Shown one piece after another: positions 5,797-53,303 of a stretch of 64,000 nucleotides of DNA. The DNA is from Patescibacteria group bacterium. Its GTDB lineage: Bacteria; Patescibacteriota; Minisyncoccia; RBG-13-40-8-A. Position 1 is the first letter of the stretch; each line of letters starts with the position of its first letter. A program made the translations under genes and the position numbers. The stretch lies in contig JAZDGD010000001.1 in the NCBI GenBank assembly GCA_043807255.1, positions 8,464 through 72,463 of the forward strand, given 5' to 3'. The notes below the pieces were generated by a model. That model ran no database searches. It worked only from the letters and a program-made list of their open reading frames with translations, and was not told the origin of the DNA.

Positions 5797-7233
5797 ATGA
5801 ATAATGATTTAATTAATTACATAAAACAATGTCGCGAACAAAAGATTTCTGATGGGCAAATCAGAACCGCTCTTTTAGGTGCGGGGTGGAAGGTAGAAGA
5901 TATAAATGAAGGATTTAATTCATTTAATGGCATAAACGTCCCTGCGCCGAGTGCTTCCAATAGTGTTGGCGGCAAATTGGCATCAGCGCCACAAATTTTA
6001 AAAGAGGCGTGGGGAATTTATAAAAAAAGATTTTTGGTTTTTGTCCTTTTAACAATAATCCCGCTGATTTTAACCACCATATTGATTGCCGTGGTTGGTG
6101 GTGTGGGCTTGTTGGGATTGGCTCTTATTTTTACTGGTCTTGCTGTTTGGAAAATTATATCATTTGCTTTAATAGCAATTTTGTTGTTCTTTTTGTTTAC
6201 AGCTACTCACGTATGGGGACAGGCATCATTAATTTATGCGATTAATGAAAATGAGTCTGGGTTAAAATTTATAGAAGCAATTAAAAAGGGTTGGCATAAA
6301 ATATTCCCTTATTGGATAGTTTCGGCATTGATTGGTGTTATTGTTATGTGTGGGTCGATGCTTTTTCTTGTTCCGGGAATTCTTTTTATGGTTTGGTTTT
6401 CTCTCGCCTTTTTTGTTTTGACAGTTGAAGACACGAAGGGCATGAGCGCTCTTTATAAGAGCAGGGAATATGTTCGAAACCATTGGTGGGCGGTACTGTG
6501 GAGGTTGATTTTTATGTGTCTAATTTCTGTGGTTATTTCTCAAATTTTTAGTTGGATATTTAAATTGATAAATGTCGGCTGGATAGAAATGATCGGTACT
6601 TTATTGGTTTCGTGCGTTCTGCTTCCGCTAATGTTGGTTTATAATTTCTTAACTTATAAAAAATTAAAAGAGTTGAAAGGAGATTTTGTTTTTGTCCCAG
6701 ACAAAAGTACTAGGACTGGCGTAAGAATCGTGGTGATTATAGTGATCACGCTCTTAGTCCTTGGTATTGTCGCAAACTTTCTTTTGGCCGGATTTTTGAT
6801 AAAACGGAATTCTTCAAATAATAACTTACAAAATCCTCAATCTAATGATCCACGAAGAAATCAATCGGTTAGTTACGAAATTGGATCAAGAGACGCCAGA
6901 AGAAGAAGTGATATTATTCTAACGGTTTTCGCGCTTCAAATGTATTACGACGATAATGGTAGTTATCCGAAAACTAACGGATGTAATGTTGATAGCTGGA
7001 GTTTAATGATGAGCACATTGCAAGATAAGAAGATTCTGTCGAATGTTCCGACCGATCCATTAAATTCTGGAGATTACACGTATAAATATAGTAGTGACGG
7101 CAAAGACTATATTTTAAGCGCCTATTTTGAGGATTCTACTAATCATTATTTAGGTACGGACGTTGATGGTGTTATTATGGGTTGTGATTGTGGTGATTCA
7201 CATTATTGTCTTGATTCAGATACTCGTTATTAA
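5797..7233 (+). CDS. Membrane protein with a conserved cytoplasmic N-domain, a multi-TM core and a C-terminal type-II-secretion pseudopilin (GspG)-like domain
   Basis: The C-terminal RRRSDIILTVFALQMYYDDNGSYP resembles the GspG globular domain. The N-terminal about 40 aa are paralogous to the protein at 41523. Confidence 0.45.
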   Translation: MNNDLINYIKQCREQKISDGQIRTALLGAGWKVEDINEGFNSFNGINVPAPSASNSVGGKLASAPQILKEAWGIYKKRFLVFVLLTIIPLILTTILIAVVGGVGLLGLALIFTGLAVWKIISFALIAILLFFLFTATHVWGQASLIYAINENESGLKFIEAIKKGWHKIFPYWIVSALIGVIVMCGSMLFLVPGILFMVWFSLAFFVLTVEDTKGMSALYKSREYVRNHWWAVLWRLIFMCLISVVISQIFSWIFKLINVGWIEMIGTLLVSCVLLPLMLVYNFLTYKKLKELKGDFVFVPDKSTRTGVRIVVIIVITLLVLGIVANFLLAGFLIKRNSSNNNLQNPQSNDPRRNQSVSYEIGSRDARRRSDIILTVFALQMYYDDNGSYPKTNGCNVDSWSLMMSTLQDKKILSNVPTDPLNSGDYTYKYSSDGKDYILSAYFEDSTNHYLGTDVDGVIMGCDCGDSHYCLDSDTRY

Positions 7234-8467: not shown

Positions 8468-8821
8468 GGGGGCGCTAGGTTTCGATCGAAGATCTTTTTA
8501 AAATATGCAAGTCGAGGATTCTAGTATCTCGTTAAAATCTAGAAAAAATAAACGCAAATACAAATTTTGCTTTTGCTACAGCTTAATTTAAGTTGAAGCC
8601 ACTTTGATGGAGATTCTCAATAGGCTATTAAAGTGTTATAGTGTCGAAAGACACTTGAGATAGATATTATGATGCCCAAGTCGTAATATCGAAAATAATT
8701 GGGTAGGATTATTCAAATTTTTGTTTGTTTATGATTTGAATGATTACAACAAACAAACTAAACTTGTAGAATTGTTTTAAAAAAACTTTGACACAGGAGT
8801 TCGATTCTCCTCACCTCCACC
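8468..8821 (+). ncRNA. ssrA: tmRNA (SsrA), with predicted tag peptide ANTNFAFATA
   Basis: The 5' end GGGGGCG pairs with the 3' CACCTCC, including a G3:U70 pair. There is a 3' T-arm GGAGTTCGATTCTCC followed by ACC. The tag ORF GCAAATACAAATTTTGCTTTTGCTACAGCTTAA at 8554-8586 is collinear with the E. coli GCAAACGACGAAAACTACGCTTTAGCAGCTTAA. It lies downstream of smpB. Confidence 0.75.
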
Positions 8822-8912
8822 CTAAACAAAAATTACTTTGTAATTTTTGTCGGGTGCCCGATCATTAAAAATGATTTAGGGCATTCCAAAAGATAAATTA
8901 ACAAAAACATAA

Positions 8913-22568: not shown

Positions 22569-23237
22569 ATGGGGAAGCTATACATCGTTGCAACACCAAT
22601 AGGAAATTTAGGAGACATAACCTTAAGGGCATTAGAGGTTCTAAAAAGCGTTGATTTGGTTTTGTGCGAAGACACAAGGGTTGCACAAAAATTATTAAAT
22701 CATTTTGAAATCAAAAAACCATTACAAAGTTATCATCAACATAGCGATTCTAGAAAAACAGATTATATTGTAGGAATTTTGGGAGAAGGCAAGGATGTTG
22801 CGTTGATTTCTGATTCTGGTACGCCGGGAATATCTGATCCGGGCAACGAATTAGTTGCAATAATTAATAATCAATTATCACTAATTAATATTATTCCAAT
22901 CCCCGGGCCAAGCGCGATGACTGCGATTGCGAGTGTCGCTGGAATTCCAATGGATAAATTTGTATTTATGGGATTTCCTCCACACAAAAAAGGCAGGCAA
23001 ACAATGTTTAGAGAAATTTCTGAATCAAAATATCCGGTGATAATTTACGAATCAGTGCATAGAATAATTAAAACCCTAAAAGAATTGCAAGTATTTAATG
23101 ATTTTGATATAGTGGTAGGACGAGAATTAACCAAGAAATTTGAAACAATCTACCGTGGTAAAATTTCCGAAGTCATTCCCCAAATCGAACCACGAGGAGA
23201 GTTTGTAGTAATAATTTGCCCAAACCATGAAAAATAA
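22569..23237 (+). CDS. rsmI: 16S rRNA (cytidine1402-2'-O)-methyltransferase
   Basis: GKLYIVATPIGNLGDITLRA...CEDTR is the RsmI N-terminal motif. Confidence 0.85.
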   Translation: MGKLYIVATPIGNLGDITLRALEVLKSVDLVLCEDTRVAQKLLNHFEIKKPLQSYHQHSDSRKTDYIVGILGEGKDVALISDSGTPGISDPGNELVAIINNQLSLINIIPIPGPSAMTAIASVAGIPMDKFVFMGFPPHKKGRQTMFREISESKYPVIIYESVHRIIKTLKELQVFNDFDIVVGRELTKKFETIYRGKISEVIPQIEPRGEFVVIICPNHEK

Positions 23238-24738
23238 ATTTTATATCACAACTACATTGCCATACGTAAATGCCGCACCACACGTGGGGCATGCATTAGA
23301 AATTGTGCAAGCAGATGTTATCGCTCGATATCGTGCCTTACAGGGCGACGAGGTGTTTTTTAATACTGGGACAGATGAACATGGACTTAAAATTTATCAA
23401 AAAGCATTAGAAGAAAAAAAGGATCCACAAGCATACTGCAATGAATATGCGGCAAAATTTGATTTATTGAAAGAAAAATTAAATTTATCTTACAATAATT
23501 TTATTCGCACAACCGACAAACATCACATCGAAGCATGCCAGGAATTTTGGAAACGATGCGAAAAAAATGGAGATATCTATAAAAAGAACTACAAAACCAA
23601 ATATTGTGTTGGTTGCGAATTAGAAAAAACCGATTCCGAATTAGTTGATGGCAAGTGCTCAAATCATCCCAATTATAAATTAGAAATTATTGATGAAGAA
23701 AATTATTTTTTTAGATTTTCAAAATACCAACAACCACTGTTAGATCTTTATGATAAAAATAAAAATTTTGTGATTCCTACTCATCGTCAAAAAGAAATTT
23801 ATAATTTTGTAAAAAATGGTTTACAGGATTTTAGCATTTCGCGACTTAAAACAAAAATGCCATGGGGTGTGCCAGTACCAGGGGACAGTGATCATATAAT
23901 GTATGTTTGGTTTGATGCTTTGATTAATTATATTTCTTGTTTGGGGTGGCCCTTCGACTACGCTCAGGGCAAGCCCGAAAATAAAAATAAGTTTAAGGAA
24001 TTTTGGGGCACAGACAAAAAACCAAACGCAATTCAGGTTGCCGGCAAGGATAATTTAAGACAACAAACTGCAATGTGGCAAGCAATGCTTTTATCGGCAA
24101 AGCTTCCATTGTCAAAACAAGTATTTATTCATGGCTTTATCAATTTGGAAGGGCAAAAAGTGAGTAAGTCGTCAGGCATAACTTTGCCCAGCCCAATTGA
24201 ATTAGTTGATAAATACGGTATCGATGCCGTTAGATATTATTTATTGCGAGGGATTCCGTCTTATGAAGATGGCGATTTTTCTATTCAAAGATTTGAAGAA
24301 TTGTATAATGCTGACTTGGCAAACGGACTTGGAAACTTGGTTGCGAGAGTTCTGGGACTAATAGAGAAAAATAATTTATTTAATGAGACCTCAAAAGATA
24401 AGGCCGACATTCGATACCAAACCAATGTAAATAATTTAAAAAAAGCAGTTGACGATTGTATTAATAAATTTGAATTTACGGAATTTTTGGAAGCTGTCTG
24501 GGCGGGGATTAGGGTGTTGGGAGATAAATATATCGACGATAAGAAGCCGTGGGAATTAATAAAAAACAATAAAAACGAAACAAAACAAGTCTTATCCAAT
24601 CTTCTGTATCTTATTTCCGAAATTGCTGACTTGATTGCACCGTTTTTGCCAGAAACTAGCGAAAAAATAAAAAATCAATTAAAAACAGGGAAATCGGAAA
24701 TATTGTTTCCGAGACTTGTCCCACCACTGCGGGGTTGA
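23227..24738 (+). CDS. metG: Methionine--tRNA ligase
   Basis: HIGH-type motif (NAAPHVGHAL), zinc knuckle (CVGCELEK...C) and KMSKS (KVSKSSG). Confidence 0.9.
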   Translation: MKNKFYITTTLPYVNAAPHVGHALEIVQADVIARYRALQGDEVFFNTGTDEHGLKIYQKALEEKKDPQAYCNEYAAKFDLLKEKLNLSYNNFIRTTDKHHIEACQEFWKRCEKNGDIYKKNYKTKYCVGCELEKTDSELVDGKCSNHPNYKLEIIDEENYFFRFSKYQQPLLDLYDKNKNFVIPTHRQKEIYNFVKNGLQDFSISRLKTKMPWGVPVPGDSDHIMYVWFDALINYISCLGWPFDYAQGKPENKNKFKEFWGTDKKPNAIQVAGKDNLRQQTAMWQAMLLSAKLPLSKQVFIHGFINLEGQKVSKSSGITLPSPIELVDKYGIDAVRYYLLRGIPSYEDGDFSIQRFEELYNADLANGLGNLVARVLGLIEKNNLFNETSKDKADIRYQTNVNNLKKAVDDCINKFEFTEFLEAVWAGIRVLGDKYIDDKKPWELIKNNKNETKQVLSNLLYLISEIADLIAPFLPETSEKIKNQLKTGKSEILFPRLVPPLRG

Positions 24739-24815: not shown

Positions 24816-25832
24816 ATGAGAAAGTCAGTTTGTGTGGTTCTTTTCATTGTTTTGGTTGTTTTCTCGTTGCCTTTTTCGGTTTTTGCCCAGAGGGTCGAAC
24901 CCAATAAAGTCGTACCCAAGAAAGTCGTCAGGATCAATTCTGCTCCGCTTAAAATTGGCGGGGTTCACAATGAACAAGAATTGATGGATTTGCTTAATTC
25001 TGAGCAAGAGGCTATCGCTGTTGTTTTTGGTCACAACGATACATTGATCAAGATTTTTATTCAGCATCTGTCTGGAGACATAGAGATCGAGTCTCGATGG
25101 TTTAAAAAGGGTGACAGATTTTTATCCAATATTTATCGTTATAATGGTAAAATTTTTAACGTGGGAGAATGGGAATGGGCAGGCGAAAAGCCGTTTGATG
25201 CATTTGTATTTCCCATCGAACAAGACCTAGGAGACATTATAAGGCAATATTGGGTTGTGGTTATTAAAGATTGTGCAAATATTGTTCTATGGGAAATTGT
25301 CGATCTTCCTATTCCGATCGAGAAGGTTGAAGAAAGGCAAGTCATTCCGCAAAGGGAAGAAAGAGAAATTCTCGAATTTCCGTCCAGGTTGTCGCTTAAA
25401 AACGACACCAAACAGCCAGCTCAAATAGATTTCTTTGCTGGAGCTGGAGTTGGCGGGTTTTATTCCTGTTTTATGGAGTATGGAACCATAGAGTGGGGAG
25501 TGGAACGTCAAATCTCTGGCCCGGTTAGCGTATTAGCATCCATTGGTGTTGGTGTGCCCGTCGGTCAGAATAAACGCGGTTGGTACACTGTACCAATGGT
25601 AAACCTCGATTTGGTTGGAACATTATTTGAACCAGTTTATCTGGGGGCAGGAATCGGATTTTCCGGTAAAATGAAAGAGGGACAAGAGTCCCAATTGGAA
25701 TTTGGTCCAACCGTCGGGTTTCGCGTGGGAGGTGTGGATTTCTCATTTAGGGGGAGAGTTCCTTTTAAAGGAGACCCAAGGGGGGTAAAGGGGAACTACA
25801 AAATTCTCCTTGGGATGAAAATATTTTTTTGA
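24816..25832 (+). CDS. Secreted beta-rich protein ending in Phe (outer-membrane beta-barrel-like), GC-richer than its flanks
   Basis: Signal peptide MRKSVCVVLFIVLVVFSLPFSVFA and a G/F/V-rich C-terminal half ending ...GMKIFF. Confidence 0.4.
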   Translation: MRKSVCVVLFIVLVVFSLPFSVFAQRVEPNKVVPKKVVRINSAPLKIGGVHNEQELMDLLNSEQEAIAVVFGHNDTLIKIFIQHLSGDIEIESRWFKKGDRFLSNIYRYNGKIFNVGEWEWAGEKPFDAFVFPIEQDLGDIIRQYWVVVIKDCANIVLWEIVDLPIPIEKVEERQVIPQREEREILEFPSRLSLKNDTKQPAQIDFFAGAGVGGFYSCFMEYGTIEWGVERQISGPVSVLASIGVGVPVGQNKRGWYTVPMVNLDLVGTLFEPVYLGAGIGFSGKMKEGQESQLEFGPTVGFRVGGVDFSFRGRVPFKGDPRGVKGNYKILLGMKIFF

Positions 25833-25916: not shown

Positions 25917-26744
25917 ATGTTAATCGATACACACGCGCATCTAAATTTTAAAGATTTTGATGATGATCGAGAAGAAATTATCAAACAATGTCAGAAGAAC
26001 GACATCGTCGTTCTTAATATTGGCGTAAATTATACTACCTCCAAAGAGGTGATTGAGCTTGCGGAAAAATATAATAATTGTTGGGCGACAGTCGCTGTTC
26101 ATCCACACGATATTGCCGAATCGCGCGACGGGGTTGGTTTTGATTATAATAAATTTTTGGAGCTTGCTAAACATTCTCGCGTTGTAGGAATTGGTGAGTG
26201 TGGTTTGGATTATCAACTCATAGAGGCAGATAAACGCAGACTTGGAACGCAGATCGACGCAGAAAAAGCGCAAAAACAACAACAAGAAATTTTTATACAA
26301 CATTTAAAATTAGCACAAGAAGTAGATAAGCCAATAATCATTCATTCCCGTAGATTGTTCCCAGAAATTTTAGAAATCATTAAAACATTTCAAGCATCAA
26401 GCATCAAGCATTTAAATGGTGTCCTGCATTGCTATATGGGTCGCTGGTCTTACGCTGAAGAATATTTGAAATTAGGGTTTTATTTGAGTTTTACGGGACT
26501 GATAACTTATGCGCGAGATTATGATAAAGTTATTAAAAATTGCCCATTGGATAGAATTTTAATTGAAACCGATTCGCCATACTTAACGCCGGATCCTTTG
26601 CGAAAAAAGGACGAAATTGTCAGAAATACACCGCTGAATGTTGAATTAGTCGCTCGAAAAATCGCCGAAATAAAAGGAATTAGTTTTGAAGAAGTTGCAG
26701 AACAAACAACCAAAAACGCACAAAAGTTATTTAAAATACAATAA
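25917..26744 (+). CDS. tatD: TatD family Mg-dependent DNase/hydrolase
   Basis: IDTHAHL, GEcGLDY and HSR motifs. It carries an in-frame CGCAGATAAA repeat insert at 26225-26275. Confidence 0.85.
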   Translation: MLIDTHAHLNFKDFDDDREEIIKQCQKNDIVVLNIGVNYTTSKEVIELAEKYNNCWATVAVHPHDIAESRDGVGFDYNKFLELAKHSRVVGIGECGLDYQLIEADKRRLGTQIDAEKAQKQQQEIFIQHLKLAQEVDKPIIIHSRRLFPEILEIIKTFQASSIKHLNGVLHCYMGRWSYAEEYLKLGFYLSFTGLITYARDYDKVIKNCPLDRILIETDSPYLTPDPLRKKDEIVRNTPLNVELVARKIAEIKGISFEEVAEQTTKNAQKLFKIQ

Positions 26745-26745
26745 T

Positions 26746-27085
26746 CCTTGATTTTTTTAAAATAACAGATTATAATGATTTCGCAGGTAGCAGGCATAAG
26801 TTCGTTCCTTTTCTCGACGGCGGAACACCTCATTGGTACCCAATGAGTCTAACGGCGAAAGCCAGGTACTGTCCTTATCGGGCGAAAGCCCGAAATAGGA
26901 ACATTGCGTGGATCAAGCCGATTCTCGGCTTGGTCTGCCAGATCGGGGGTTCGCGGGAGATACATTGAGCGTCAAGGGACACCCTCTCTCTCCCTCTCCA
27001 CAACGCCCAGCCATGAATGCCTGTGTCAACACCTGTGGCCCTTGCCCAAACAAGGGCCATCTTTTTTAAGTAAATCAACCAAAAA
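26746..27085 (+). ncRNA. Candidate retron msr/msd non-coding RNA (GC-rich, hairpin-dense)
   Basis: About 340 nt, far GC-richer than the genome. It contains multiple hairpins, including two GAAA tetraloops, ctcattggtacccaatgag and aagccgattctcggctt. A candidate a1 (ccttgatttttttaaaa) and a2 (ttttttaagtaaatcaacc) inverted pair lies at the ends. It sits directly upstream of a retron-type RT with an SD (aaaggag) between them. Confidence 0.5.
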
Positions 27086-27096
27086 GGAGAAATGGG

Positions 27097-28143
27097 TTGA
27101 AAAAATATACCGTTCCGAGGATATTAGGAGAATCAGTTCTTTTTATGTTAATCAGAAGGTACGGTAATTGTAAGACGCAAGAGACAATTACGGCAGAGGT
27201 ATTATCAAAATTAATTTCTTGTCCGCCCTACACGACCAGCAGAAGCCTTATTAATGGTAAGGTTCGCGAATTAAGTATTCCAAGCAGAGAACTTAAAATG
27301 GTTTTAAGGGTAATTCTAAAAAATATTTTTGATTATTTTGGTGTGTCGGGCTTTGCTCACGGCGGAGTGTGTGAAAAATCTATCGTTACGAATGCCGAAA
27401 TACATCTTGGGGCAAAGTCTATCTTCAAAATTGATTTTAGACATTATTATCCATCGATTACTCAAAAAATGGTCGTGGATTGCCTCTCTCGATTGTTAGA
27501 AAAAAACGTTGGATGTATTGCTACTTTAGAAAATTGCGGCATGTCTTCTTTTCGAGAGGCAAGAGGATTGGCGGGAATTATTGGTCGTTTAGCTACACAC
27601 AAAGGAGTGTTGCCTCAAGGGGCACCAACTAGTTCGTGTTTACAAAACCTGATTTTTAGAGATCTAGATGAAAAGATCTCCAAAGTAGCCGAAAAATATT
27701 TTCTTCGTTACACTCGCTTTGTGGATGACCTAACTTTTTCTAGTGCCTGGCCAGAGATATCACAGTCAGCGTTAAATGAAATAATGGCACTGATTAAAAA
27801 CGAAGTTGGTGAATTTCTTAAATTGAATCGTAAGAAAATTCACTACAGAAAAGGGAAAAGAGAGGTACACAAAATCACAGGCGTAACAATTGTTCCTGGA
27901 CTAGACAATATTTCAAAAACATCTTTAACGCGAAGGCAGATAGAGCGATACAGAAGCGTATTGCATTTAGCTAGTTTGGGTCGCGTAAGCACGGATCAGG
28001 CATGGGGTGTAATCGCGTTTGTAAGAATGGTTTGTGGGGAAGGAATTCCCAATAGACTGAGAAAACCGTTTACACAATTTTTAACAAATTGCTATCCTGA
28101 TTCGTGGGACAGGAGGATTGAACCCTATAAGAATTGGTTGTAG
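27097..28143 (+). CDS. Retron-type reverse transcriptase (TTG start)
   Basis: RT motifs are collinear with retron RTs: NAxxH (VTNAEIHLG), KIDFRHYYPSI, LPQGAPTSSCLQNLIF, RYTRFVDDLTFSS (FVDD in the YADD position) and a VTG-like KITGVTIV. Confidence 0.8.
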   Translation: MKKYTVPRILGESVLFMLIRRYGNCKTQETITAEVLSKLISCPPYTTSRSLINGKVRELSIPSRELKMVLRVILKNIFDYFGVSGFAHGGVCEKSIVTNAEIHLGAKSIFKIDFRHYYPSITQKMVVDCLSRLLEKNVGCIATLENCGMSSFREARGLAGIIGRLATHKGVLPQGAPTSSCLQNLIFRDLDEKISKVAEKYFLRYTRFVDDLTFSSAWPEISQSALNEIMALIKNEVGEFLKLNRKKIHYRKGKREVHKITGVTIVPGLDNISKTSLTRRQIERYRSVLHLASLGRVSTDQAWGVIAFVRMVCGEGIPNRLRKPFTQFLTNCYPDSWDRRIEPYKNWL

Positions 28144-28215
28144 CAGGCATTGGTTGCAAAACCGATGCCTTTTTTATTTGAAATTTATCTGTAAATTTGA
28201 TAAGATAAAGATAAT

Positions 28216-30651
28216 ATGGATTATAATCCTCAAGAAATTGAAAAAAAGTGGCAGGAAAAATGGGAAAAACTTGGTCTATATAAAGCCGAAGATTTTTCTA
28301 AAAAGCTAAAACAATATATTTTGGTTGAATTTCCATATCCCTCCGGAGATGGTCTTCATGTTGGTCACGCTCGCAGCTATTCTGCGCTTGATGCTATGGC
28401 ACGCAAAAAGAGAATGCAGGGGTATAATGTTTTATTTCCAATTGGCTATGATGCGTTTGGACTTCCTACTGAAAATTATGCAATTAAGACTGGTATTCAC
28501 CCAATCGAGGTAACTAAAAAAAATACAGCGATTTTTAGAGAACAGTTGAAAAGTTTAGGATTATCGTTTGACTGGTCTCGAGAGATAAATACTACCGATC
28601 CCAAATATTATAAATGGACACAGTGGATATTTTTACAATTTTTTAAAAAAGGATTAGCTTATCAATCAGAAATGCCAATAAACTGGTGTCCGAAATGTAA
28701 AACAGGGTTAGCCAACGAAGAAGTTGTAAATGGAAAGTGTGAACGTTGTGGCACGCAAACCGAAAAAAGAAATAAAAAACAATGGTTATTAAAAATTACT
28801 GATTATGCGGATCGATTGATTGATGACTTAAAATTGGTTAATTATCCAGACAGAATTAAAAACCAACAGATTAATTGGATTGGAAGATCCGGTGGAACAA
28901 ATATAAAATTTAAAATCGGAGACAACGAATTAGAAGCATTTACAACAAGAATAGACACAATTTTTGGTGTAACCGCACTTGTATTAGCTCCCGAACATGA
29001 ACTAATTAATCAGCTGAAAAATAAAATCGAAAACCTAAACGAAGTCCAGGAATATATTAATCAGGCAAAGAAAAAATCGGAAATTGAGCGCATGGATTTT
29101 GCGAAAGAAAAAACGGGCGTTGAATTGAAAGGAGTTTATGCAATCAATCCATTAAATAATGAAAAAATTGCAATTTGGATCGGAGATTATGTAATTGCCA
29201 CTTATGGCGGGGGAGCAGTAATGTTTGTGCCCGCACACGATGAACGTGATTATGAGTTTGCAACGCGTCACAACATTCCCATTCGGGAAGTGGTGACGCC
29301 GCAGATAAGCGCAGATTTAGACGCAGATAAACGCAGAGATGGGGCGTTTACGAGCTATGGTTATTTAATTAATTCAGGAGAATTTAATGGATTGGACTCG
29401 GAAAAAGCAATAAAAGAAATTACAAAATTATTGGAAAAGAAAAAATTGGGTAAAAAAACGATTAATTATCATTTGCGAGATTGGGTGTTTACGCGTCAAC
29501 ATTATTGGGGTGAGCCAATACCAATTATTCATTGCGAAAAGTGTGGGGTAGTGCCAGTTGATGAAAAGGACCTACCAGTAGAACTCCCTTATGTTGAAAA
29601 ATATGAACCAACCGACAGCGGAGAATCACCATTATCAGTAATTGATGAATGGGTAAATGTAAAATGTCCTAAATGCGGAGGAAAGGCAAAAAGAGAAACT
29701 GACACAATGCCAAATTGGGCTGGTTCTAATTGGTATTTTCTTAGATATTGCGATCCGAAAAATGATAAAGAATTTGCAGATATGAAGAAATTAAAATACT
29801 GGATGCCCGTAGACCTATATAACGGTGGGATGGAACATGTAACCCTTCATTTGTTATATTCAAGATTTGTTTATAAATTTTTATATGATATTGGCGTTGT
29901 GCCAACTCTTGAGCCATATCAAAGACGATGTGCCCATGGCATGGTCTTGGGGTCTGATGGCAAGAAAATGAGTAAGTCTTTGGGCAATGTTATCAATCCG
30001 GACGAAGTCGTAAAAAAATATGGCGCAGACACGGTTCGTTTGTATGAAATGTTTATGGGACCGTATGAAGATGAAATTTCTTGGAGCACGGAAAGCCTAG
30101 AAGGTTGTGCAAGGTTCTTAAGAAGAATTTGGAATCTATTTAGTAATGATGAAAAGTTTGCCAAAGAAACCTCAAAAGATTTAATTCAAAAATTGCATTA
30201 CACGATAAAAAAGGTTAGTGACGATCTAGACAATATGAAATTTAACACCGCAATTTCAAGCATGATGGAATTTGTAAACGCATGGAGTGGAGAGAGGCAA
30301 GTTTTATCGAAAGCTGATGCAGAAAATTTCCTGAAAATTCTATCGCCGTTTGCACCACATATCACTGAAGAATTATATTCTAAAATTAAAAGTCAAAAGT
30401 CAAAAATTAAAAGTATTTTTGACGAACAATGGCCAGAATATGATGAAGAGTTAATCAAAAAAGACAAAATCGATTTGGTGATTCAAATCAATGGCAAAGT
30501 TAGAGATAAAATCGAAGTAAAAGCAGACATTTCCGAAAAAGAGGCAAAAGAACTAGTTTTATCGAACGAAAAAATAAAAACCTGGCTAAATAACCAAGAA
30601 CCGAAGAAAATAATTTTTGTAAAAAATAAATTAATTAACATCGTAATTTAA
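28216..30651 (+). CDS. leuS: Leucine--tRNA ligase
   Basis: HIGH-type motif (PYPSGDGLHVGHA), CP1 editing domain and KMSKS (KMSKSLGN). In-frame repeat inserts lie at 29299-29338 and 30385-30414. Confidence 0.95.
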   Translation: MDYNPQEIEKKWQEKWEKLGLYKAEDFSKKLKQYILVEFPYPSGDGLHVGHARSYSALDAMARKKRMQGYNVLFPIGYDAFGLPTENYAIKTGIHPIEVTKKNTAIFREQLKSLGLSFDWSREINTTDPKYYKWTQWIFLQFFKKGLAYQSEMPINWCPKCKTGLANEEVVNGKCERCGTQTEKRNKKQWLLKITDYADRLIDDLKLVNYPDRIKNQQINWIGRSGGTNIKFKIGDNELEAFTTRIDTIFGVTALVLAPEHELINQLKNKIENLNEVQEYINQAKKKSEIERMDFAKEKTGVELKGVYAINPLNNEKIAIWIGDYVIATYGGGAVMFVPAHDERDYEFATRHNIPIREVVTPQISADLDADKRRDGAFTSYGYLINSGEFNGLDSEKAIKEITKLLEKKKLGKKTINYHLRDWVFTRQHYWGEPIPIIHCEKCGVVPVDEKDLPVELPYVEKYEPTDSGESPLSVIDEWVNVKCPKCGGKAKRETDTMPNWAGSNWYFLRYCDPKNDKEFADMKKLKYWMPVDLYNGGMEHVTLHLLYSRFVYKFLYDIGVVPTLEPYQRRCAHGMVLGSDGKKMSKSLGNVINPDEVVKKYGADTVRLYEMFMGPYEDEISWSTESLEGCARFLRRIWNLFSNDEKFAKETSKDLIQKLHYTIKKVSDDLDNMKFNTAISSMMEFVNAWSGERQVLSKADAENFLKILSPFAPHITEELYSKIKSQKSKIKSIFDEQWPEYDEELIKKDKIDLVIQINGKVRDKIEVKADISEKEAKELVLSNEKIKTWLNNQEPKKIIFVKNKLINIVI

Positions 30652-30777
30652 AGCTCGAATTATTTATATAAAAGACACGTGTTGATTTTTTTAATAAAAA
30701 AATCACACTCTATCTCGGTCCGATGGCGATCGGACCTGCGATGCGGACTTTTATATAAACAATTCTCGCCAAGATTT
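30652..30777 (+). promoter_or_regulatory. Conserved roughly 125-nt leader element, copy A (upstream of purN)
   Basis: Near-identical to 39270-39404 apart from a central hairpin whose two arms are both replaced while staying complementary (ggtccgatggcgatcggacc versus agccgactgctgtcggct). It also contains an AT hairpin (gtgttgatttttttaataaaaaaatcacac). Confidence 0.5.
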
Positions 30778-32347: not shown

Positions 32348-32462
32348 TCTCCACCTCCTTAATGTGTTTCTCGTTATTTAACGAGACTGAAAGAACAATT
32401 ATAGATTAACAGACAAGGAAAATCTTGTCAATCAAAATTTGAAGTGCATACGATCCTCTTTG

Positions 32463-32546
32463 TGCCCGGGGAGGGAGTCGAACCCTCATGACCTTGCGAT
32501 CACACGATTTTGAGTCGTGCGCGTCTGCCAATTCCGCCACCTGGGC
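32463..32546 (-). tRNA. tRNA-Leu (anticodon CAA)
   Basis: 84-nt cloverleaf whose D-arm (GGCGGAATTGGCAGACGC) is nearly identical to E. coli tRNA-Leu. Anticodon loop CUCAAAA, long variable arm, T-arm GAGGGTTCGACTCCCTC; one A:C mismatch in the acceptor stem. Confidence 0.85.
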
Positions 32547-39269: not shown

Positions 39270-39404
39270 ATTGCTCGAATTTTTTATATAAAAGACACGT
39301 GTTGATTTTTTTAATAAAAAAATCACACTCTATCTCAGCCGACTGCTGTCGGCTTCCGATGCGGACTTTTATACAAATAATTCTCGCTAGGAAATAAAAG
39401 AATT
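39270..39404 (+). promoter_or_regulatory. Conserved roughly 125-nt leader element, copy B (upstream of hisS)
   Basis: See copy A. Outside the central hairpin it is near-identical to copy A. Confidence 0.5.
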
Positions 39405-53196: not shown

Positions 53197-53232
53197 TGGG
53201 CAAGCCGTCGCCAAGGCTATGGCATTGCGAGG

Positions 53233-53303
53233 TCGGGCTGCCGAGAATCGAACTCGGGCCACACCCACCCCATGGGCGCGTACTGCCACTATACTACAGC
53301 CCG
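53233..53303 (-). tRNA. tRNA-Pro (anticodon GGG)
   Basis: Acceptor CGGGCTG/CAGCCCG, anticodon stem CGCCC/GGGTG, loop AUGGGGU (GGG with G37) and T-arm CCGAGTTCGATTCTCGG. Confidence 0.8.

Follow-up and report, generated by a model that had tools for sequence, protein, structure and literature searches.

The subject of this study is a cassette of about 1.4 kb that lies exactly at the junction of tatD and leuS in a 64-kb stretch of DNA, hereafter the window, from a record named Patescibacteria group bacterium. It consists of a reverse transcriptase (RT) of the retron clade and a structured noncoding RNA (ncRNA) encoded upstream of it on the same strand. The upstream RNA is a true structured ncRNA of a family that is absent from Rfam, and the module is a retron-like, two-part RT-ncRNA variant without the RNA shape that is typical of retrons. 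It is rare, accessory and stand-alone in Patescibacteria. A probable, though far from certain, reading of the whole is that of an accessory retron-like cassette in which the RT copies a variable domain of the RNA and which has a conflict-type role. An earlier reading of this DNA made from its letters alone (the sequence-only reading) had called the locus a retron-like unit in a Patescibacteria-like host, and the name of the record agrees with that view of the host.

Retrons are regarded as immune systems of three parts, akin to toxin-antitoxin systems, and serve as tools for writing DNA. The module described here is compact and partner-free and comes from a streamlined Patescibacteria genome; its RNA keeps the retron frame, that is, a closing helix and the RT-side hairpins, and a variable single-stranded domain replaces the msd hairpin. 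It is a clean case for learning what a retron RT and its RNA do alone, and what such an RT needs to choose and bound its template, and it adds a structured RNA family to those in Rfam. If the RT copies an unstructured and freely variable template, the module would be a possible chassis for single-stranded DNA production.

The whole span, including the promoter-like part ahead of leuS, is 26745-28215. There is a single transcription unit, in which the promoter is conserved, a conserved hairpin separates the RNA from the RT, and a terminator follows the RT. The parts are:

26748-26776, + strand: cassette promoter, TTGATT (26748-53), 17-nt spacer and TATAAT (26771-76), beginning 4 nt past the tatD stop
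26786-27067, + strand: structured ncRNA, about 280 nt, its 5' end placed by reference to the -10 box, its 3' end by reference to the hairpin with its T-run
27084-27089, + strand: Shine-Dalgarno sequence AAGGAG of the RT, 8 nt upstream of the TTG start
27097-28143, + strand: open reading frame (ORF) of the retron-clade RT, 348 aa, TTG start
28145-28175, + strand: intrinsic terminator ending the cassette; an equivalent hairpin and T-run stand behind every homologous RT
28178-28215, + strand: promoter-like sequence for leuS, which comes with the cassette and is not present at empty sites

The promoter matches the consensus at 10 of 12 positions in a consensus scan, and both hexamers are kept across the homologous loci in an alignment.

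The reverse transcriptase belongs to the retron clade

The 348-aa ORF is intact and begins with TTG behind a Shine-Dalgarno sequence, as the sequence-only reading had it, and the start position is common to all homologues, with TTG in most and ATG in two. The RT motifs quoted in that reading are all present (VTNAEIHLG, KIDFRHYYPSI, LPQGAPTSS, RFVDDLTFSS and KITGVTIV), and in an alignment of the seven closest homologues the key positions of these motifs (N99, H103, D113, Q174-G175, F208, D210, D211, T261 and G262) did not vary. The retron signature NAxxH of region X is found as T98-N99-A-x-x-H103, in which the N and the H are invariant. The signature VTG of region Y, which had been described as VTG-like, is found as ITG (I260-T261-G262), a conservative V-to-I change that keeps the T and the G.

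Profile hidden Markov models, a sequence search against solved structures and the predicted fold all place the protein in the retron clade, which bears out the earlier call of a retron-type RT. Pfam matched RVT_1 only (9e-13). In PADLOC the best 25 models were all retron RTs (6e-44 to 1e-28), with the top scores given by RT_XIII (6e-44), III-A (1e-43) and II-A (3e-42). The NCBIfam model NF038233 (retron_St85_RT) matched at 2.8e-46 compared to 3e-10 for Drt2 and 1e-8 for group II, and the Drt3a, Drt2 and group II models were all more than 30 orders of magnitude worse than retron_St85_RT. Among solved structures, retron RTs filled the top 15 places in the sequence search (1e-22 to 1e-4) save for one unnamed RNA-directed DNA polymerase fragment; Ec86 RT was the best at 1e-22, followed by Kva2, Ec78, Ec83, Ec67 and Eco8, and the non-retron RTs GsI-IIC and Drt2 came at 6e-3 and 1.5e-2, respectively. 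An AlphaFold (AF2) model of the RT had a predicted local distance difference test score (pLDDT) of 92.5, and the top 17 Foldseek matches to it were retron RTs (Ec86, 1e-17), after which came group II, G2L4, DRT9, DRT2 and diversity-generating retroelement (DGR) RTs. The protein is made up of RT and thumb only, endonuclease, integrase and maturase domains being absent by Pfam, the model and the fold search. The RT is a member of the retron clade and lies outside every defined retron type.

Three other classes of RT were considered and rejected. A group II intron is opposed by a TIGR04416 score of 34 bits against a cutoff of 300 and by the lack of any intron RNA by Rfam. A DGR does not fit a fold search in which the DGR RT ranked 44th, and the 64-kb window contains the RNA region only once. 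A DRT2-type RT (UG2) is opposed by an NF041746 score of 39.7 bits against a cutoff of 390.

A conserved structured RNA precedes the RT

The RNA was found upstream of the RT in all 9 of the loci read, namely the eight tatD-leuS loci and one locus (L100) in another context. The gap ahead of the RT is 300-445 nt in every locus with a family member, and these gaps are alignable. The sequence-only reading had proposed a comparison of loci with homologous RTs as a check, and in this comparison every close homologue has the conserved RNA beside it, and the RNA matches no known RNA family: with Rfam 15 at E<=1 there was no match for the window RNA or for five relatives, and a search of the whole window at the gathering score gave nothing relevant to the RNA region. 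The segment between tatD and the RT ORF has a GC content of 52-55% compared to about 32-40% around it, which agrees with the earlier description of a GC-rich upstream segment. The same reading had taken the whole unit to be richer in GC than its neighbours; this did not hold, as the RT ORF is at 36-41% like its neighbours and only the RNA is GC-rich. The hairpins that had been pointed out, including two GAAA tetraloops and an 8-bp helix, do exist, and the + strand of the segment folds better than shuffled sequences (z = -5.1; for the - strand, z = -2.6). The elements of the RNA are as follows:

26790-26797, + strand: 5' strand of the closing helix P1 (a1-like arm), GCAGGCAT, invariant in 7 members
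26804-26826, + strand: stem-loop SL1, GTTCC, 13-nt loop and GGAAC, with compensated stem variants that include GUUUGG/CCAAAC and GCCCC/GGGGC
26829-26847, + strand: SL2, 8-bp stem CTCATTGG-TAC-CCAATGAG (26829-36/26840-47), with compensatory changes at stem positions 2-4
26854-26863, + strand: SL3, GGC-GAAA-GCC (GGCGAAAGCC), with a conserved AACGG before it
26879-26892, + strand: SL4, CGGGC-GAAA-GCCCG (CGGGCGAAAGCCCG), followed by a conserved purine tract, AAATAGGA, to 26900
26901-27016, + strand: variable domain, fast-evolving, the candidate template
27017-27024, + strand: 3' strand of P1 (a2-like arm), ATGCCTGT, family form ATGCCTGY
27035-27067, + strand: 3' hairpin (27035-27060) and T-run, GGCCCTTG-CCCAAA-CAAGGGCC, terminator-like here

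A structural alignment of eight RNA sequences was made by hand and leans towards pairing; in it, 44 pairs in six helices form standard pairs in 309 of 309 cells, and 26 of the 44 show compensatory double changes. RNAalifold recovered P1, SL2, SL3, SL4 and part of the 3' hairpin. The core of the closing helix is CAGGCAT/ATGCCTG (26791-97 / 27017-23), and P1 is 8-9 bp in the window, 7 bp in L094, where a compensating swap gives UAGGGCC/GGCCCUA, and 5 bp in L100, where it gives GGGCC/GGCCC. The SL2 stem in L100 is CCUGCCGG/CCGGUGGG. In SL4, GGGC..AAGCCC is invariant in the core family, the stem in L094 is GGAGCGU/ACGCUCC, and CGGGC/GCCCG against GAGCG/CGCUC is a further example of compensation. 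Four hairpins (SL1-SL4) are conserved, and L094 has five. All members keep the 3' hairpin through compensatory changes. Only three, namely the window, L001 and L094, have a clear T-run behind it, and the hairpin is terminator-like in 3 of the 8 tatD-leuS members. The sequence-only reading had taken ccttgattt and aaatcaacc as the a1 and a2 repeats. These arms do pair (15 nt, 87%), but the 5' arm is the -35 box of the promoter and lies upstream of the transcript, and the aaatcaacc arm has been kept in none but the 88%-identical relative; the helix that truly closes the RNA is P1.

The RNA and the RT form one accessory unit

The gene order in all eight lineages that have the cassette at this site is metG, a variable slot, tatD, RNA, RT and leuS. 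Three relatives on long contigs (L097, L098 and L099, with TatD 86%, 79% and 72% identical, respectively, in pairwise comparison) have an empty site, in which the gap between tatD and leuS is 7-31 nt and neither the RNA nor the RT is present. The RT of a more distant relative, P0335 (E 5e-74; locus L100), has an upstream gene that is not tatD, and so the cassette is in a different context there. The plan of L100 is nevertheless the same: TTGACT-17-TATAAT, P1, hairpins that include a compensated SL2, an unstructured domain, a 3' hairpin of 12 bp, and then a Shine-Dalgarno sequence with a TTG start codon. Since the plan is found again in other surroundings, the RNA and the RT travel together. 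In the Joint Genome Institute (JGI) metagenomes all three matches of a strict scan for the RNA motif adjoin the RT. A covariance model of the 5' domain, run over 1 Mb of sequence with 80 further retron-RT loci and the three empty sites in it, found only the window, which was in the training set, and L094. In the nearest outgroup locus (L096, P0123) the DNA upstream of the RT is AT-rich and shows no similar RNA. The RNA and the RT have been gained, lost and relocated as a single unit, and the cassette is self-contained, with its own promoter and terminator, and present in a minority of a Patescibacteria clade. The sequence-only reading had inferred horizontal acquisition from GC content; that inference is unsupported, and it is the empty sites instead that show the accessory nature of the cassette.

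These observations bear on whether the RNA and the RT are adjacent merely by coincidence, the RNA being an independent housekeeping RNA or a leuS leader and the RT an unrelated insertion. The tatD-leuS copies share one ancestry, and their co-occurrence could for that reason be linkage alone. The relatives without the RT, however, are also without the RNA, with leuS starting 7 nt after tatD, the pair of RNA and RT recurs in another context in L100, and no Rfam family was matched, be it T-box, RNase P, SRP, 6S or another. Coincidental adjacency is largely refuted by L100 and the empty sites, and we give it hardly any weight.

A second possibility is that the cassette is a selfish or integrative element in which the RT and the RNA serve their own spread through insertion at gene ends or terminators. 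Its precise presence or absence at one junction and its own promoter and terminators would fit such an element, as would the second context in L100, where a 35-nt duplication of the target terminator is found. The direct repeats in L100 (198-232 and 1605-1639) are 89% identical with 24 nt exact and bracket the whole RNA and RT cassette; each repeat corresponds to a terminator hairpin, AATCGCCAAGGAGGCGATTTTTTG, and the arrangement has the appearance of a target duplication. At the tatD-leuS copies, on the other hand, there are no flanking direct repeats and no conserved target-site duplications, a 16-nt repeat in the window (26787/28140) not being found in L001. Further, the RT has no endonuclease, integrase or maturase domain, the cassette is absent from viral contigs, and the same site is occupied in eight lineages with RT identity down to 38%, roughly in step with tatD. 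Since occupancy of the site keeps in step with tatD, linkage and recombination fit better than repeated insertion, and we consider a selfish element quite unlikely.

Extent of the RT family, selection and history of the junction

In a word-based search of 5.8 billion proteins, seven RT clusters had 47-100% identity, after which the matches fell to about 35% identity and were ordinary retron RTs. A profile search added two further clusters at 40% identity to give 9 in total, compared to more than 100 clusters of TatD proteins of equal relatedness (59-86% identity to the window TatD). A HMMER search of 1.84 billion representatives gave a thin tail of further RT relatives (E 1e-80 to 1e-50), made up of stand-alone proteins of 324-340 aa, tandem RT-RT fusions and one protein with a kinase and two RTs. 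The tandem RT-RT and kinase-fusion relatives are among P0334, P0337, P0347 and P0348, and in one of these, of 1381 aa, two RT domains come after a Ser/Thr kinase domain. Beyond the wider family, the nearest named homologues in the word-based search were RTs of about 480-500 aa from Sorangium and Chondromyces. Protein scans found no family member in the GTDB species-representative genomes, where the best identity was 33-35% and the strict RNA-motif scan gave 0 matches, and none in the IMG/VR viral contigs.

When the window was compared with L001, the ratio of nonsynonymous to synonymous substitution rates (dN/dS) of the RT was about 0.085 (0.071/0.833), and the RNA region was 91% identical compared to about 83% for nearby coding DNA. 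Both the RNA and the RT are under purifying selection. In the same comparison the RT and TatD were 87% and 88% identical, respectively, and LeuS only 63%, the drop in identity being limited to leuS; the LeuS of the cassette-free L097 is 85% identical to that of the window. RT identities range from 38 to 87% and roughly track the TatD relationships. The genes for aminoacyl-tRNA synthetases are mosaic among the close relatives compared (the window, L001, L002, L004, L094 and L097-L099): LeuS sequences form two allele groups (about 58-63% identity between and 75-85% within groups). MetG also forms two groups (about 41-50% against 65-85%), and the LeuS and MetG groups cross-cut each other and the TatD relationships. 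The history of the cassette is one of long residence at one junction with losses and recombinational exchange, and neither recent foreign acquisition nor simple vertical descent. More generally, core-gene junctions in Patescibacteria can serve as exchange sites for accessory modules.

The variable domain and a proposed mechanism

The domain between SL4 and the 3' strand of P1 is about 105-125 nt long, and 216 nt in L094, and in most members it is A/C-rich and poor in U or G. In most members it folds no better than shuffled sequence, the z-scores in eight members being -1.9, +0.2, -0.3, +0.5, -2.6, -3.3, -0.8 and -0.1, and the folding energy was -12 kcal/mol over 114 nt in L004 and -30 kcal/mol over 216 nt in L094. 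The window copy has a hairpin at 26911-21/26925-35 inside this domain. A motif search gave no shared k-mer (5-mers in at least 6, or 6-mers in at least 5, of 7 lineages) and showed only general C-rich tracts. Two duplications were noticed within the domain: L094 has an exact duplication of CCGACCACCACCA (6777-6789 and 6817-6829, 40 nt apart), and L004 has AAAAATCCCCA twice in tandem at 5911-5932. The variable domain seems to grow by local duplication.

The mechanism that we propose is as follows. The RNA and the RT mRNA would be made from one promoter, and the 3' hairpin would act as a partial terminator so that the RNA is in excess over the RT. The RT would bind the conserved 5' domain (P1 and SL1-SL4), as retron RTs bind msr, and would then reverse-transcribe part of the variable domain near P1, which is largely unstructured and A/C-rich, to give a short single-stranded DNA rich in G and T. 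The product would remain in the ribonucleoprotein, which may have a conflict or defence-type role, either with no dedicated neighbouring effector or with an effector encoded elsewhere. A conflict-type role is proposed because the cassette is rare, optional and exchangeable.

The RNA might instead be chiefly a regulator, an antitoxin or a sponge and not a template for the RT; its C-rich tracts, for example, could pair with Shine-Dalgarno sequences, that of the RT itself included. In most members CUCC, UCCC or CCUC tracts lie 9-27 nt ahead of the 3' strand of P1, a conserved AGGAGG-like tract follows SL4, and the RNA has a strong promoter and a terminator-like end of its own, all of which would suit a regulator. 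A 'P2' helix of AGGAGG with CCUCC fits L002, L005, L009 and L010, but this pairing is not kept in the window or in L001. The invariant catalytic residues of the RT and the strong purifying selection on it also argue against a regulator, as does the presence of a closing helix and hairpins directly upstream of a retron RT, which is the operational mark of retron ncRNAs (PMC10849725). We therefore think it very unlikely that regulation is the chief function of the RNA.

Another alternative keeps the RT as a copying enzyme and makes its product the effector, in the manner of DRT2 and DRT9. Repeated or unstopped copying would yield long or repetitive DNA that acts or encodes, with P1 joining the ends of the template. 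That the system has two components and no effector gene, that a helix encloses its single-stranded candidate template, and that the variable domain has short internal duplications are in favour of this alternative, and DRT2 is a precedent for a system of RT plus ncRNA only (PMC12483538). Against it, the RT is of the retron class and not of UG2 or UG28, its Drt2 score being 39.7 bits against 390 and its Drt2 match in the search of solved structures in the Protein Data Bank (PDB) being 1.5e-2, and no motif is conserved in the variable domain. A stop-free frame like that of Neo in DRT2 was looked for in the P1-enclosed region and in the variable domain on both strands, and rejected: such a frame is missing from L001, none runs through every member, and the lengths of the variable domain are not multiples of 3. 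A DRT2-like or DRT9-like product is in our view unlikely. The same small chance is given to a retron-clade RT acting as a true two-component system, in which the long, unstructured and diversifying A/C-rich domain would be the template and the G/T-rich DNA would itself be the output, either by being sensor and effector at once or in the form of repetitive DNA. If that were true, the logic of DRT2 and DRT9, in which the DNA product is the effector, would reach the retron lineage, and would do so in ultra-small Patescibacteria.

Points that weigh against the proposed reading

Several results weigh against the reading of a retron-like cassette whose RT copies the variable domain. The score of the RT with NF038233, 158.1 bits, is below the curated cutoff of 235, and several PADLOC retron types match the RT about equally, and because of this it was assigned to no defined type. 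A long msd stem-loop is not conserved, and no hairpin is common to the variable domains. At the inner end of P1, where retrons have the priming (branching) G of a1 opposed by a second G, an A faces an A in the window and in six relatives; G is opposite G only in L094 and L100. The RNA is separated from the RT by a hairpin that carries a T-run. No effector was found, since the only conserved neighbours are tatD and leuS and both are there without the cassette. Finally, the synthesis of cDNA, its template and any defence role are what we infer from these loci. The canonical msr/msd architecture suggested by the sequence-only reading was accordingly given up, the window copy having no conserved long msd stem-loop, an A-A junction and a terminator-like hairpin before the RT. 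That reading was right that no effector accompanies the RT.

Neighbouring genes and other features of the window

The housekeeping genes that flank the cassette and the gene beyond the variable slot are:

23227-24738: metG, upstream of tatD, beyond the variable slot
25917-26744: tatD, upstream flank
28216-30651: leuS, downstream flank

TatD was considered as an effector and rejected; its match to the QatD model is owed only to its membership of the TatD family, and it has the same place in cassette-free relatives. The slot between metG and tatD has a 338-aa ORF in the window (24816-25832), which has no Pfam or PADLOC match and is not conserved. In relatives this slot holds no Pfam-annotated ORF: L002 has an unrelated-looking ORF of 263 aa, L094 has two small ORFs, and L004 and L099 have nothing. 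The slot may be a second variable site beside the cassette.

The 13-mer TTGATTTTTTTAA, which in the cassette promoter spans the -35 box and the T-tract, also occurs in the window at 30682-30694, just past leuS, and at 39302-39314, and it may be a common promoter form in the host genome. The 16-nt direct repeat in the window consists of GTAGCAGGCATAAGTT at 26787-26802 and GTAGCAGGCATTGGTT at 28140-28155. The 5' arm of the terminator, directly after the RT stop, resembles the 5' strand of P1, and a weaker GGCRTT likeness is found behind every homologous RT; the copy at 28140-28155 may provide an alternative long-range pairing with the 3' strand of P1. The sole other large structured RNA found by Rfam in the window is the tmRNA gene at 8468-8822, with the tag ANTNFAFATA. 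The tRNA genes are tRNA-Leu (32462-32546) and tRNA-Pro (53231-53303), and no RNase P, SRP or rRNA gene was found by Rfam in the 64 kb.

Comparison with known systems

The operational criteria of the retron census cover the RT clade, the signature motifs, an upstream ncRNA on the same strand, terminal inverted repeats and short hairpins, with a1/a2 inverted repeats of >8 bp (PMC10849725). All these features are found here, with terminal inverted repeats of 8-9 bp, and the P1 of the window is borderline with respect to >8 bp. Compared with canonical retrons such as Eco1 (Ec86), the module has the same RT clade, the NAxxH motif, ITG in the place of VTG, and an upstream same-strand ncRNA that is closed by inverted repeats and has short 5' hairpins. 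It differs in having four msr-like hairpins where the canonical msr has one to three, no long msd stem-loop, no G-G junction in the window copy, a terminator-like hairpin before the RT and no effector. A long stable msd stem-loop has been described for all canonical msr-msd transcripts (PMC7736814, PMC8632793), and ncRNAs 'with unusual structures' have been allowed for in retron work (PMC7736814). In Patescibacteria it is DGR RTs that dominate (PMC8632793).

With type XIII retrons (RT clade 10, Myxobacteria, PMC7736814), which are reported to be partly vertically inherited (PMC7736814), the RT shares its best PADLOC model, RT_XIII, and its closest named homologues outside the wider family in the word-based search are from Sorangium and Chondromyces. 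However, the N-terminal extension of about 150 aa of that type is missing, the match covering model positions 154-409 of 469, and the score is barely above those of types III-A and II-A. No SWIM/winged-helix or HEAT/ARM partner was found in the Pfam annotations of the neighbouring genes.

An effector gene or fused domain is found in about 75% of retrons and about a quarter are without a predicted partner (PMC8632793). Stand-alone (msr-msd)-RT cassettes have been noted for RT clades 2 and 11 in Gammaproteobacteria and Actinobacteria (PMC7736814), and hence the lack of an effector is not by itself unprecedented. Those of clades 2 and 11, which we liken to ours by description only, also consist of an RT and an ncRNA with no associated protein; they differ in having a canonical msr-msd and in belonging to other RT clades and phyla. 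DRT2 differs in the class of its RT and in its stop-free frame, of which no conserved counterpart exists here; what it has in common with the present module is an ncRNA upstream of the RT, a template region that is single-stranded between structured parts, and the lack of an effector gene.

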